A DNA stretch of 64,000 nucleotides from a virus (IMGVR_UViG_3300031998_000009:134525-198524); one strand, 5' to 3'. Positions 40,270-54,951 are shown, counted from the stretch's first letter. Program-made: numbers and translations. Notes: generated by a model not told the origin, from the sequence alone.

Positions 40270-40782
40270 TTACTTTCTTTGTCTACGACGTTTACTAGGT
40301 CTTCTCTTACTACTATGACATCCCTCGTCAAGTGTATCAAGAAAATCATTTACTTTCTGTCTCTCATATTCATCAACATATACTTCAACATGAATCATAT
40401 TATAAGCACCTGATGCTTCATGTTTAATGTTTTGATCTACCAGGAATTTCTTCAACTTTCTATATTCGTCTTCGGTTACTTCGACATTAAGCCATTTCTT
40501 ATCAGAGGCTTCTTTAACAATAGATTCGTCAAACTCTTCCTCAAATTCCTCGTCATTCATAAAAGGAATCTCATTAACTCTAAAGATATACTTTAGGTTA
40601 TTTGCAAGTTCGTCAGTTCCCATAGCTTTAGCAAGCTCTTCACATAGACCGTCTGCTCCAAGATACTTTAAAGCAATATCATAGGCATCCCATGCGTTTT
40701 CAGACCAAATATCAGAATAACTTTCCTTGATGTTGTTTTTAACAATACTACGTTTACTCATTTTTCTAATCATAGTGAACAT
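40270..40782 (-). CDS. Two-module putative capsid cargo protein
   Basis: Basic leader ending IKE|S; internal FDE|S, VKE|A linker. Confidence 0.6.
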   Translation of the reverse strand: MFTMIRKMSKRSIVKNNIKESYSDIWSENAWDAYDIALKYLGADGLCEELAKAMGTDELANNLKYIFRVNEIPFMNDEEFEEEFDESIVKEASDKKWLNVEVTEDEYRKLKKFLVDQNIKHEASGAYNMIHVEVYVDEYERQKVNDFLDTLDEGCHSSKRRPSKRRRQRK

Positions 40783-40796
40783 CTCCTTATTATTTT

Positions 40797-41189
40797 TTAA
40801 TCATGTCTAAATTGCCAACCATTTGTATCATCATACCAAAATCTTAAGAAGGTATAACCATTAGAACCACCGTCTGGATGCCTGTATGCAAAACTAGCGG
40901 ATCCCCAAAATGCCGGCTGGTGGTCTTCCTTTTTATAGTATACCTCTGAATTAAATTCCTCAATGTATAATTCACCAAACATAACACGGAGGAACCCGGT
41001 TCTATCTGCTAGATCTTGAGATTTAAACTTAATTCGAACATAACCACGACTTTCGTAGATGTCGTAGTCAAAATCCAAATCGTTTATACCAGTTACCTCT
41101 CTTATTTCATCCCAAAGTTCATCCATTGGAATGGACTCTGCCCAACTCATTAATTCGGTTTCGTTAGATTCATTTAGCCTTCTTATCAT
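40797..41189 (-). CDS. Putative capsid cargo protein
   Basis: MIRRLNE|S leader. Confidence 0.6.
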   Translation of the reverse strand: MIRRLNESNETELMSWAESIPMDELWDEIREVTGINDLDFDYDIYESRGYVRIKFKSQDLADRTGFLRVMFGELYIEEFNSEVYYKKEDHQPAFWGSASFAYRHPDGGSNGYTFLRFWYDDTNGWQFRHD

Positions 41190-41209
41190 AATAAAAACAT
41201 CCTTTCTTA

Positions 41210-41524
41210 TTAAAAAATAACTGGTTCTCTATTTATAACTCTTACTTCTTGAAGATATTCATCACCATCCGAAGTATAAGCTATATACCAACATTTACCA
41301 TACTTATCAGGTTCGTAACCTTTACCCGTATCTTTAGACATAATGTCTGGATCCCATTTATCAAAAACACCTCTTCCAAAAAGTTCACAATCTTCGAAAA
41401 ATTCAAATGCTTCTTCTTTATTAGGAAAGATACAGAGTGAGTTTTTATTTGTTTTTGGATTTCTGAACAGCACACCGTATTCCGGTTCCATATTGTCCAA
41501 ATCTTCCTTTACATAAAGTTTCAT
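41210..41524 (-). CDS. Putative capsid cargo protein
   Basis: MKLYVKE|D leader after GAGGAG. Confidence 0.6.
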   Translation of the reverse strand: MKLYVKEDLDNMEPEYGVLFRNPKTNKNSLCIFPNKEEAFEFFEDCELFGRGVFDKWDPDIMSKDTGKGYEPDKYGKCWYIAYTSDGDEYLQEVRVINREPVIF

Positions 41525-41787
41525 AGAAACACTCCTCATATAAAAACTGTTATATTAAAAAATTGTATAAAATGTCACATAATTCATTTATACGACACTC
41601 TACTGAACTCCTTCTACGCTTGGCAGATGAGATAATGTAACCTACTCAAAAAGGTTACAATTTATAATGTTGACATCTACTTGTTTTTTTGTGTAATTGT
41701 ATATTTATTTTAATAATTTTTTCATGACCTTATAAGACCCAGTAGTTTTTTATAACGATCCTTATATAGTGTCATGCTGTTATATAT

Positions 41788-41936
41788 AGTATAACACATT
41801 TTCATAAATTTGTCAAGATTATTTCGGGTAAATTATTTTGTTATTATTCTACAAAAATATAGGACAATATTTGTGAATTATTTTACAAGCAAAGATTCTA
41901 AAAACCCTTGACAAACTTATAAAAATATGTTATACT
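41788..41936. promoter_or_regulatory. Divergent pair of sigma-A-type early promoters
   Basis: Minus: TTGACA(41816-41811)-17-TATACT. Plus: TTGACA(41908)-17-TATACT(41931). Confidence 0.8.
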
Positions 41937-41995
41937 ATAATTACAGTAAACTATATAGATGCAGGATAGGTTTATTACTTCGGAGGTTATGAATT

Positions 41996-42517
41996 ATGGC
42001 AAGTTTTAAAAATATTGAACAGTTCACATATGGACAATATGAAGTCGATATTCATGTAAGACATCTTGAAAAGATGCTTAAGTCTTATGAAGAAGATTAT
42101 AATCTTGAACTTAATCCTGATTTTCAAAGAGGAAATGTCTGGACGGAAGAACAGCAAATTAAGTATGTAGAATTCTTCCTTCGTGGAGGAAAGTCTGCAA
42201 GAGTTATTTATTTCAATATTGGAGAATGGTCTTTTAACAAGAACACAGACATTCCTCAGATGGTTTGTGTTGATGGACTTCAGAGACTTACTGCAATTCT
42301 TAGATTTCTTCATAATGAAATTCCTGTTTTTGGACATTTCTATAATGAGTTCGAAGATAACATTCCTCTTGAGCATACACTTAAATTCAACATTAATAAT
42401 CTGGCATATAAAAAAGATGTTCTGAAATGGTACCTTGAAATGAATTCCGGTGGAACTGTTCATAGTAATAGTGAACTTGAAAGAGTTCGAAAGATGATTG
42501 AAGAATACGAAATTTAA
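41996..42517 (+). CDS. Stand-alone DUF262 (ParB/Srx-fold, GmrS-like) protein
   Basis: LNPDFQRGNVW, VDGLQRLTAI, MNSGG motifs. Confidence 0.88.
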   Translation: MASFKNIEQFTYGQYEVDIHVRHLEKMLKSYEEDYNLELNPDFQRGNVWTEEQQIKYVEFFLRGGKSARVIYFNIGEWSFNKNTDIPQMVCVDGLQRLTAILRFLHNEIPVFGHFYNEFEDNIPLEHTLKFNINNLAYKKDVLKWYLEMNSGGTVHSNSELERVRKMIEEYEI

Positions 42518-42520
42518 TCA

Positions 42521-53106: not shown

Positions 53107-53123
53107 AAGTATTCTCCTTTCGT

Positions 53124-53501
53124 TTATAGTGCTTCTTCGATAGATTTAAGGATGGACTGAACAAATATAGTTGTTTGAAAAGAAATAACTTCTTTTGTTA
53201 AAGTACATTTGACTGTAAGAGTATTTATTCCTGTCATAGTAAAATCATCTGATACCGGAGTTACTTTTATTTGTCCTCTATGTGGATTTACTATTTCAAT
53301 AGTTCCTTGAAAAGGTGTTGTTTTTAAATCTGTATTTGTTACAGCAGCAGAAATAATACAATCATCACCTAAATCAAAGTATTTACAATCATCATGTAAC
53401 TCAAACAGAATTTCCGGAAAGTTAGTTGTGAGTGACTTCTGAACAGCGATACTTTTCTTAACTTGAATTGGATCTTTAACATTAACCGTCACATAGAACA
53501 T
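53124..53501 (-). CDS. BppU N-terminal-like domain protein
   Basis: FELHD.....DL, IVNPHRGQI, FT..G pattern. Confidence 0.5.
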   Translation of the reverse strand: MFYVTVNVKDPIQVKKSIAVQKSLTTNFPEILFELHDDCKYFDLGDDCIISAAVTNTDLKTTPFQGTIEIVNPHRGQIKVTPVSDDFTMTGINTLTVKCTLTKEVISFQTTIFVQSILKSIEEAL

Positions 53502-53642
53502 TTTAGATCACCCCTAAACCCATCATATTACATATATAAGTGTTAGTTGGTACTTTTTATTTTTATATTTAGTTTGTTTAATTTTTACAACTAAAAACAA
53601 AAGGAACCCGATTTCTATCAGGTTCCTATAAGAACAAACTAT

Positions 53643-53876
53643 TTATAGATTTGTGGTATCTTCTGTATCGGCAATCCATTTTCTTTTTCCACCTATATAT
53701 TCGGATAATTCTACAAAAGAACATCTTTCAGATAGTCTATCAAAATATTCAGCAGCATCTTCATAAGAATTAAACCTTCTATTGTATTTCGGAGCATTCT
53801 TTCTAGGTTCATCATCTTTCCACCCCATTACAATGAAGTAATGTGAATCACCTTTTTCGTGAATTTTTAATAACAT
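53643..53876 (-). CDS. Putative cargo protein
   Basis: MLLKIHE leader. Confidence 0.5.
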   Translation of the reverse strand: MLLKIHEKGDSHYFIVMGWKDDEPRKNAPKYNRRFNSYEDAAEYFDRLSERCSFVELSEYIGGKRKWIADTEDTTNL

Positions 53877-53878
53877 AA

Positions 53879-54568
53879 TTAATCTACTCCTCTCAATTTA
53901 GCATTAGGTATCTGTGATCGTACTATTTCCAGGTATCTTTGCATTTCCTCATTTGACAGAGGGGAGCATTTTTTATCTAGTACATTATCAGACATTTTGA
54001 ATTTTTGTAAATAATAATTCTTGCAACCTCTTAATAGATTCGCTATTCTTATCATATCATACGATTCGTGTAAACCTTTAACAAGTGTTGTTCTGAACTC
54101 ATAATCAATACCACTATTCATAATTAGATTTATAGATGTTTTAATATTTGTAGTATTAAGATTATAAAAACCACAAGTTATAGCATATTTTTCCATGCAG
54201 TTCTTAACATCCATTGCTATATAGTCTACAAGATGTTTGTCTAGTAGTTCTTTTAGTTTATCCGGAATTGTTCCATTGGTATCTAATTTAACAAGAAATC
54301 CTAGTCTTTTTATTTCTGTTATGAATGAAATAATATCTTCTTGTAGTAACGGTTCACCACCTGATATACATACTCCATCTAGTTTATCTTTTCTCATTTT
54401 AAGAAACTCGAAAAAGTCTTCTGAACTCATGATAGAGTTACATTTATCAATGAGTTCAGAATTATGACAGAAAGGACATTTTAGATTGCAGTTACTTGTA
54501 AATACGATACAAGCTACATATCCTGGATAATCTAATATTGTTGTTCTTTGTAGTCCTGTTATGTTCAT
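53879..54568 (-). CDS. nrdG: Anaerobic ribonucleotide reductase activase (radical SAM, NrdG2-like)
   Basis: DYPG..ACIVF..CNLKCPFCHN, ISGGEP, KLDTNG, YEFRTT. Confidence 0.88.
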   Translation of the reverse strand: MNITGLQRTTILDYPGYVACIVFTSNCNLKCPFCHNSELIDKCNSIMSSEDFFEFLKMRKDKLDGVCISGGEPLLQEDIISFITEIKRLGFLVKLDTNGTIPDKLKELLDKHLVDYIAMDVKNCMEKYAITCGFYNLNTTNIKTSINLIMNSGIDYEFRTTLVKGLHESYDMIRIANLLRGCKNYYLQKFKMSDNVLDKKCSPLSNEEMQRYLEIVRSQIPNAKLRGVD

Positions 54569-54590
54569 TCCAATAACTCCTCAAATATTA

Positions 54591-54785
54591 TTAAAATTCT
54601 TCGTCAAAACCTGTATAATGTTTTTTATTATCATTCCGTTTATATTCTTTCCAGTTCACAGGTAGCTTTGGTTTCTTTCCGAAATAATAAATACCGTTAT
54701 CATCAAATCCATCTTCTAAATAGGATGTTTTAGCTGGAATAGAACAAGTATCTTCTTTTATTCTTAATTTTATACTATTTTTCAT
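54591..54785 (-). CDS. Small putative cargo protein
   Basis: MKNSIKLRIKE|D leader. Confidence 0.55.
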   Translation of the reverse strand: MKNSIKLRIKEDTCSIPAKTSYLEDGFDDNGIYYFGKKPKLPVNWKEYKRNDNKKHYTGFDEEF

Positions 54786-54951
54786 ATACATCACTCCACA
54801 TCTCTTCAGGTGTTGAATATGTTGGACTGGATAAAGTGCCTTTCATTATTTTATTTGCTTCTTTCATAGCCTCAATAGTTTCTTTGTTTAGCTTATATGT
54901 TTTTTTCTCTCTTATAAGTTTAGCTTCGGATTCTCTTATTCTTAATTTCAT
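54775..54951 (-). CDS. 58-aa RelB/DinJ antitoxin C-terminal-like peptide with a capsid-targeting-like leader
   Basis: Not in the ORF track. AAGGAG RBS; MKLRIRE|SEAKLIREKKTYKLNKETIEAMKEANKIMKGTLSSPTYSTPEEMWSDVYEK. Confidence 0.7.
   Translation of the reverse strand: MKLRIRESEAKLIREKKTYKLNKETIEAMKEANKIMKGTLSSPTYSTPEEMWSDVYEK

Follow-up and report, generated by a model that had tools for sequence, protein, structure and literature searches.

Short N-terminal leaders ending in hydrophobic-x-Glu on dispersed small proteins of an uncultured phage with a T4-type head operon: a candidate capsid-targeting signal

The prohead protease of phage T4, gp21, cuts after Glu in the sequence L/I-X-E, and Asp at P1 (the residue preceding the cut) blocks processing (PMC9026906). 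Ten residues of the internal protein IPIII suffice for capsid targeting (PMC9026906, PMC5694885, PMC3012670), and T-even internal proteins form a diverse set with the targeting sequence alone in common (PMC3012670, PMC9026906). The enzyme Alt loses six residues, at ITE-6 (PMC5694885); gp21 itself has LIE-9. The subject of this paper is a short leader of this general kind, found at the N-termini of numerous small proteins encoded in IMGVR_UViG_3300031998_000009:134525-198524, a stretch of 64,000 nucleotides ("the window") that forms the end of one viral contig of 198,524 bp (~33% G+C, with almost every gene on the minus strand). The interval 40270-54951 of the window (minus strand; positions are those of the window unless said to be of the genome) lies directly upstream of a T4-type head operon, and it is here that an array of leader genes was first noticed.

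The resemblance to T4 is one of design. A short N-terminal leader with a hydrophobic-x-Glu end is carried by unrelated small proteins, as in IPI, IPII and IPIII; the protease is of the gp21 family, the portal of the gp20 type and the capsid protein of the gp23 type; and the set of genes is variable between relatives, as are the internal protein genes of the T-even phages (PMC3012670, PMC9026906). There are also differences. The leader is unrelated in sequence to the T4 capsid-targeting sequence and often shorter (5-7 vs 10 residues). It is carried by some 30-40 proteins (about a tenth of the proteome, roughly ten-fold more) rather than by a handful, and the carriers, whose mature parts are mostly acidic, are distributed over several clusters, some of them behind early promoters. 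The motif recurs inside proteins, where modules join; protease and scaffold form one polypeptide; and the system is known from sequence alone. Alt provides a precedent for a very short propeptide together with a second processing site elsewhere in the chain, comparable to the internal junction sites described below, but it is a single enzyme with demonstrated function and packaging, whereas no ADP-ribosyltransferase (ART) domain was detected in the genes of the window.

Two further systems bear comparison. In the giant phages phiKZ, 201phi2-1 and SPN3US, 8-19 head proteins are cut after Glu in a three-residue motif; the propeptides can hold several sites, and the genome encodes a diverged protease paralog (PMC5694885, PMC9026906). 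Their motif is S/A/G-x-E, their propeptides are often long and their gp21-related protease is S80, in contrast with the L/I-x-E, very short leaders and S77 protease found here. [quoted passage not shown] Relatives of the present phage likewise string YafQ-toxin and ART-PolyVal modules together with modules of the window, and these are domain types for which that source predicts delivery by the virion. Most modules here, unlike those of polyvalent proteins, are encoded singly by small genes, each of which supplies a leader (44150-45325 has two modules; relatives have three-module chains with YafQ_toxin or ART-PolyVal), and the joints of the fused forms carry a defined protease motif, a feature that does not appear in the published account as consulted.

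The leader and its distribution

The leader consists of Met followed by alternating basic and hydrophobic residues; it is 5-17 residues long, ends in hydrophobic-x-Glu and is usually followed by Ser, Asp or Asn (consensus: Met, Lys/Ile, Leu/Lys, Arg, Ile, Lys, Glu). An earlier, sequence-only reading of the interval had listed 15 such N-termini. All 15 are present on the minus strand, each with a plausible Shine-Dalgarno site, although three of them require an internal or GTG start in place of the longest open reading frame (ORF): 41210-41524, 44150-45325 (GTG) and 47961-48284. Under a strict rule, which demands that the first acidic residue be Glu at position 5-13 with L, I, V or M two residues earlier, 12 of the 27 genes in the interval qualify, vs 51 of 269 elsewhere (Fisher p 0.005). 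One of these 12 (47573-47818) is probably a start-codon artefact, and four of the 15 listed N-termini are looser variants: 40270-40773 (Glu 17), 42649-44055 (Glu 15), 47961-48284 (two sites) and 48753-49673 (Leu at P4).

Taken over the whole genome, 63 of 296 N-termini (21%) match the strict rule, compared with 6.5% of internal windows of the same proteins. The N-termini of Staphylococcus phage K, T4 and SPO1, with genes called by the same script, match at 7.6-9.4%, while two relatives with 200-kb genomes (G001 and G002) show the same excess as the present phage, at 20% and 19%; enrichment is thus ~3-fold in these three genomes and nil in the three controls. A tighter pattern occurs 13 times here and 0-1 times per control phage. 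The coupling of Glu to its context also emerges when the hydrophobic residue is not built into the test: when the first acidic residue is Glu, P3 (two residues before it) is L, I, V or M in 57% of cases in this clade vs 30% in controls (p 8.5e-10), and when the first acidic residue is Asp, the figure is 33%. Since ~20-25 of the 63 matches are expected by chance (sheath, baseplate and clamp-loader proteins provide examples), roughly 30-40 carriers are likely to be real. They cluster at genome 50-70 kb and 170-190 kb; the latter is the array interval, and the former cluster is also delimited as 54-68 kb.

The sequence-only reading presupposed an enrichment of the motif over background, and the enrichment is there, both between array and remaining genes and, ~3-fold, against internal windows and control phages. 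Its picture of an array of ~15 leader proteins needs two corrections: the interval, although the densest part of the distribution, also contains 12-15 genes without a leader (among them NrdG, a methyltransferase-like protein and a membrane protein), and the motif extends genome-wide. The mature parts (first 15 residues removed) are, as proposed, mostly unrelated by BLAST, with a few families of 2-4 members. They are also somewhat more acidic than the remaining proteins (median pI 4.9 vs 5.6).

A modular signal at the protein level

The leader is a real signal that is selected at the protein level and is modular. Synonymous codons vary across leaders (Leu is specified by six codons and Arg by three) and there is no conservation upstream of the leader starts beyond the Shine-Dalgarno site, so that an origin of the motif in mRNA function or in a recombination site is rejected.

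Modularity is seen most clearly in the family of the 146-residue protein encoded at 45816-46256, for which a database search gave 100 homologs, 96 of them with an alignable N-terminus. Leaders are present in 86 of the 96 orthologs, in 37 different forms of 5-15 residues, all ending in Glu; P3 is Leu in 71, Ile in 13, and Val and Met in one each (Leu/Ile in 84 of 86). The leader differs by insertions and deletions between orthologs while L/I-x-E stays. The other ten orthologs cleanly lack it and start a few residues before the first conserved strand. In the AlphaFold model of this protein (predicted local distance difference test, pLDDT, 88; predicted template-modelling score, pTM, 0.82) residues 1-10 are unstructured and the first strand begins at residue 11. 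Among ~20 representative stand-alone distant homologs of the Dps/ferritin-like protein encoded at 48753-49673 (28-42% identity), 13 begin with the same kind of leader. The leader is thus separable from the mature fold: orthologs exist without it, it is unstructured when present, and in the two-module protein 44150-45325 the fold of module 2 starts just past the junction Glu.

That junction belongs to the strongest new evidence, which is the retention of the motif where modules have been joined. From residues 108-111 onward, 44150-45325 is homologous to stand-alone leader-bearing proteins of at least 10 relatives, with 93% identity to the counterpart in a near-identical strain (L001). The junction residue Glu110 is invariant in the alignment (A3), and the confident part of the AlphaFold model begins at residue ~112. 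In G001 and G002, three fusion proteins join modules that are separate leader genes here, and every joint has a full leader-like stretch. A search with the 64-residue protein encoded at 54591-54785 retrieved six longer proteins (P0101-P0106) in which its module is strung with others, including a YafQ-type toxin (Pfam 1e-25) and an ART-PolyVal-like module (30.3 bits, just under the threshold of 31.2); each joint has hydrophobic-x-Glu followed by Ser, Asp, Asn or Ala. Residues 99-209 of P0104 are, in turn, a homolog of 51966-52307 (54% identity, E 3e-35). No junction motif was seen in control fusions of leaderless proteins, and 44150-45325 has no detectable relation to the ART-PolyVal module of P0103. 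Internal junctions would not retain a purely N-terminal signal (a translation effect or an N-degron, for example); they would retain a cleavage site.

Leader-gene arrays occupy the same place upstream of the large terminase gene (TerL) in relatives and consist mostly of different genes, which fits an exchangeable set. The proposal that such a set lies just upstream of the terminase-head operon is borne out, both in its position and in the turnover of its genes between relatives. Streptococcus phage vB_SagM-GXN1 (L009 / W01) shares the head module, and its segment 122094-144653 contains ~8 small genes whose leader is M-R-L-(I/V)-(R/K)-L-x-E, with Ser or Asp next; six of these alternate with genes for capsid, neck, sheath and baseplate.

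The head operon itself follows the array on the minus strand in the order TerL, portal, a 148-residue protein, protease-scaffold fusion and capsid protein (Table 1). The Peptidase_S77 match covers the first 170 residues of the 569-residue fusion protein, the remainder being coiled coil. Alignment with T4 gp21 shows both catalytic motifs conserved, GELDHP with the His and GVSSRGQG with the Ser. The protease has the motif at its own N-terminus (residue 6 ends LIE, and residue 16 ends LTE with Ser next; both are conserved in relatives), and 24 [LIVM]-x-E sites are distributed along the protease-scaffold protein. The N-terminus of the capsid protein has M-V-E ending at residue 7, with I-N-E at the same place in relatives; throughout the clade the first seven or eight residues of capsid proteins end in Glu with a hydrophobic residue before it. 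Three cultured phages come closest by capsid protein, with identities of 37-39%: Bacillus phage vB_BceM-HSE3, Listeria phage LIS04 and GXN1. With TerL as query, relatives at 66-99% identity were retrieved; among the closer uncultured relatives in IMG/VR are contigs of up to 207 kb with terminase identity of 66-70%.

Proposed capsid targeting and other readings

The most likely mechanism, at a probability of about 0.55 and by analogy with T4, is an expanded form of capsid targeting combined with proteolytic release. If the analogy with the T4 capsid-targeting sequence holds, the leader would dock each protein onto the scaffold core during prohead assembly; the prohead protease, to judge from the motif match, would then cut after the leader Glu; and the freed mature protein would stay in the head and enter the next host with the DNA. 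At fusion junctions the motif would allow multi-module proteins to be cut into separate modules, and because it is kept there, fusion, fission and exchange of cargo genes would be nearly neutral.

The capsid-targeting part of the sequence-only reading is partly supported by these observations: the leader is modular and works at the protein level, the protease is an intact S77 enzyme, the setting is a head operon, and the preference for Glu over Asp, coupled to a hydrophobic P3, agrees with the published L/I-X-E rule. By the same analogy we infer packaging, injection and an anti-defence role. The last of these is a guess, since the cargo domains are without family or fold match: nearly all leader proteins lack a family in Pfam, PHROGs and NCBIfam, and neither the 146-residue family nor module 2 of 44150-45325 had a Foldseek match in the PDB at E <=0.001.

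Several facts weigh against capsid targeting. The leader and the T4 capsid-targeting sequence are alike in the cleavage motif and nowhere else, and the strict rule missed the T4 internal protein genes. The number of cargo species, at least 30, would be far greater than T4 carries. In HSE3 and LIS04, which are cultured and have a homologous protease, leaders of this kind are few over the 41 kb examined. A position-weight matrix derived from the leaders of relatives did not concentrate internal sites in head structural proteins, and its top hits were partly array proteins. On HSE3, LIS04, GXN1 or Thornevirus, a search of the literature for proteomic studies of virions turned up genome announcements and surveys only. 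Finally, there is the matter of timing. The host-type promoter TTGACW-N17-TGTTATACT, which is present in 29 sharply conserved intergenic copies, mostly at genome 8-110 kb, and probably marks early units read by host RNA polymerase, heads several leader-gene units in the cluster at 54-68 kb, and within the interval it heads one (41788-41816). Packaged proteins are expected to be made late, and it is for this reason that early promoters count against packaging; T4 precedent and protein stability could reconcile the two.

These early units enter into the best surviving alternative, which is that the leader is a processing signal and nothing else: a site for the prohead protease, or for another Glu-specific protease, at which cytoplasmic modules are trimmed or separated at a late stage of infection, with neither capsid loading nor injection. 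Such cleavage might serve polyprotein processing or set the timing of activity. Retention at junctions requires cleavage alone, not targeting, many leader genes lie in early units, and the abstract of one preprint reports phage proteases that activate cyclic-oligonucleotide-based antiphage signalling system (CBASS) immunity by proteolysis (PMC12991175), which suggests that such enzymes may act outside the capsid. Nevertheless, this explanation appears unlikely. Conservation reaches past P3-P1 into the basic and hydrophobic residues of P6-P4, the region in which targeting by the T4 sequence resides (PMC9026906); the loss of 5-7 disordered residues would hardly switch activity in so many unrelated folds; and proteases of the gp21 type are assembled into the prohead core and, in T4, act there.

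Slightly less probable again is a linear motif that the head protease does not cut: a docking strand or stability tag for some other partner, perhaps an unfoldase, a hub protein or a chaperone of phage or host. Beta-strand augmentation would suit the alternation of basic and hydrophobic residues, many carriers are early-expressed to judge by their promoters, and internal matches to the position-weight matrix are not concentrated in head proteins. Against this reading, the strict requirement for Glu, not Asp, with L or I two residues before it is exactly the gp21 rule, and the N-terminus of the protease and the capsid protein have the same ending; an N-terminal degron, moreover, would not persist at internal junctions.

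It is very improbable that there is no signal and that the motif arises from AT-rich N-terminal composition, a translation-initiation effect on mRNA or shared gene ancestry. Low-GC genomes often encode Lys at position 2 and N-termini rich in Ile and Leu, and ~8% of control N-termini match the leader rule. Against this stand the 3-fold excess over internal windows and three control phages, the disparity in the tight pattern, the variation of synonymous codons, the persistence of the motif inside fusions and the lack of relation among mature parts. The notion of a recognition sequence for a modifying enzyme of the array, for example a radical S-adenosylmethionine (SAM) maturase, may be dismissed: a radical-SAM gene (53879-54568, minus strand) does lie among the leader genes, but these are scattered genome-wide, far from it, and its product is the activase of anaerobic ribonucleotide reductase, scoring 204 bits as an NrdG2 equivalog (cut-off 131).

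Capsid targeting with release can be extended to a broader and more tentative picture, to which we give somewhat less than an even chance: that one protein in ten belongs to an arsenal made in advance and delivered by the capsid, with a minimal code of 5-7 residues as its address and at the same time as the cut site; that its modules, because each has a cut site of its own, stay functional when they are fused, split or passed from phage to phage, as 'beads on a string' for injected effectors that include a toxin-type RNase and an ADP-ribosyltransferase; and that the arrangement is widespread in uncultured T4-type phages of gut and rumen Firmicutes. If the leader does what is proposed for it, a simple sequence rule would list the injected proteins of a large uncultured phage group from the genome alone, a class that would include first-strike anti-defence and host-takeover factors that are otherwise hard to find. 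The T4 principle of capsid targeting would reach distant phages of Gram-positive hosts and scale to dozens of cargo species, and a common cut site would make cargo genes freely fusible and exchangeable. Foreign proteins have already been loaded into T4 capsids; a packaging tag of 5-7 residues that matches a known protease family would be a practical handle for loading them into capsids of the present type.

Transcription units, array genes and neighbours

Copies of TTGACW-17 nt-TGTTATACT are located in the window at 5323, 41788, 41936, 58841, 59595, 59704 and 61539. The three leader genes next to the terminase form one unit, between the promoter at 41788-41816 and a terminator at 40201-40238; the rest of the interval is without an early promoter of the TTGACW type. 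A second kind of element, TAAATATA/TATAAAT, is found near position -67 of TerL, of a baseplate gene and of two units of the array. The copy of TAAATATA at 53571 lies 69 nt before the first gene (53124-53501) of the largest unit of the interval, a spacing shared by TerL and a baseplate gene, and the TATAAAT-type element upstream of TerL is conserved in two relatives; because words of this kind are common in AT-rich spacers, these are candidate late promoters only.

Table 1. Array genes, head-operon genes and a terminator-like element of the window
Feature	Coordinates	Strand	Description
Major capsid protein, Gp23 family, first exon	32840-34081	-	Pfam Gp23 1.4e-45
Prohead protease gp21/S77 fused to coiled-coil scaffold-like region, 569 residues	34108-35817	-	Pfam Peptidase_S77 2.6e-12
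Portal, T4 gp20 family	36321-38090	-	Pfam Portal_T4 1.7e-47
Large terminase (TerL)	38110-40101	-	First gene of head operon, adjoins array downstream; 663 residues
Leader gene, 167 residues	40270-40773	-	17-residue basic leader, I-K-E then Ser, non-canonical length; no Pfam/PHROG family
Leader gene, 130 residues	40797-41189	-	7-residue leader, L-N-E then Ser; no family
Leader gene, 104 residues	41210-41524	-	7-residue leader, V-K-E then Asp; first gene behind strong sigma-70-type promoter 41788-41816
468-residue protein	42649-44055	-	Loose 15-residue leader, L-K-E; high-scoring internal I-K-E then Asp at residue 373
Two-module protein, 391 residues	44150-45325	-	GTG start; 7-residue leader, I-K-E then Ser; second I-K-E then Ser at residues 108-111 (~44996-45007)
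Leader gene, 146 residues	45816-46256	-	5-residue leader, L-T-E then Asn; one of 4 paralogs in genome
Leader gene, 107 residues	47961-48284	-	Two candidate sites: L-x-E at residue 5, V-N-E at residue 9
Leader gene, 148 residues	48295-48741	-	6-residue leader, L-R-E; weak UPF0167 similarity
Leader gene, 306 residues, Dps/ferritin-like 'DNA binding protein' domain	48753-49673	-	7-residue leader, Leu at P4; phrog_3636 6.8e-8, profile from residue 28
Leader gene, 78 residues, acidic	51398-51634	-	7-residue leader, M-V-E then Asp
Leader gene, 100 residues	51649-51951	-	6-residue leader, L-N-E; orthologs with different 6-7-residue leaders
Leader gene, 113 residues	51966-52307	-	7-residue leader, I-L-E then Ser; whole protein with leader recurs as internal module of longer proteins
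Intrinsic-terminator-like hairpin	53602-53627	-	Splits interval into transcription units; TAAATATA element follows at 53571
Leader gene, 77 residues	53643-53876	-	7-residue leader, I-H-E
Leader gene, 64 residues	54591-54785	-	11-residue leader, I-K-E then Asp; elsewhere fused behind YafQ-toxin, leucine-rich repeat or other modules, leader kept at junction
Leader gene, 58 residues, basic	54775-54951	-	7-residue leader, I-R-E then Ser

The one plus-strand gene of the interval, 41996-42517, encodes a 173-residue protein with a GmrSD_N (DUF262) domain (Pfam 2.6e-11) and stands behind a strong sigma-70-type promoter (41908-41936) that diverges from the one at 41788-41816. GmrSD_N comes from the N-terminal part of a type IV restriction enzyme and is a curious domain for a phage to encode. 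Just upstream of the array, 56786-57655 (minus strand) encodes 289 residues that include a toxin domain of the PemK/MazF-like kind (9.2e-10) and, at the C-terminus, a weak helix-turn-helix match. Longer homologs of the Dps/ferritin-like protein (P0131, P0137, P0148, P0160, P0169 and similar) have an acidic linker before the domain, in which L-(I/V)-T-E followed by (T/E)-P is recurrent: another hydrophobic-x-Glu junction, in unrelated metagenomic proteins.

Within the head operon, the capsid gene appears to be split (32840-34081 and 32317-32442): the Gp23 match stops before the end of the profile, and a small ORF 400 nt downstream encodes a conserved C-terminal piece. In relatives (L001, L004, L005) a GIY-YIG-like ORF lies between the capsid gene pieces, and the terminase ORFs of relatives specify 798-1083 residues, compared with 663 here; the split gene and the longer ORFs suggest inteins or introns. 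Elsewhere, at genome 27592-29004 (minus strand; L070:7592-9004), a 470-residue protein with an RlaP nucleotidyltransferase domain (5.6e-17) has an N-terminal segment of 130 residues with a weak hhalign match (E 0.005) to the prohead protease, in which the catalytic His and Ser positions are replaced. Its orthologs in G001 and G002 are without the protease-like part; such a dead protease domain might act as a capsid-targeting module. Five tandem paralogs of ~175-199 residues are encoded at genome 23464-26207 and a sixth at 44344-44946, all beginning M-I-G-Y-K. At the end of the contig (62000-64000), G+C rises to 44%, vs ~32% elsewhere, over an open-ended ORF that resembles a tail-fibre-like protein; the phage may have gained a host-range module here recently, or the segment may mark a join made in assembly.

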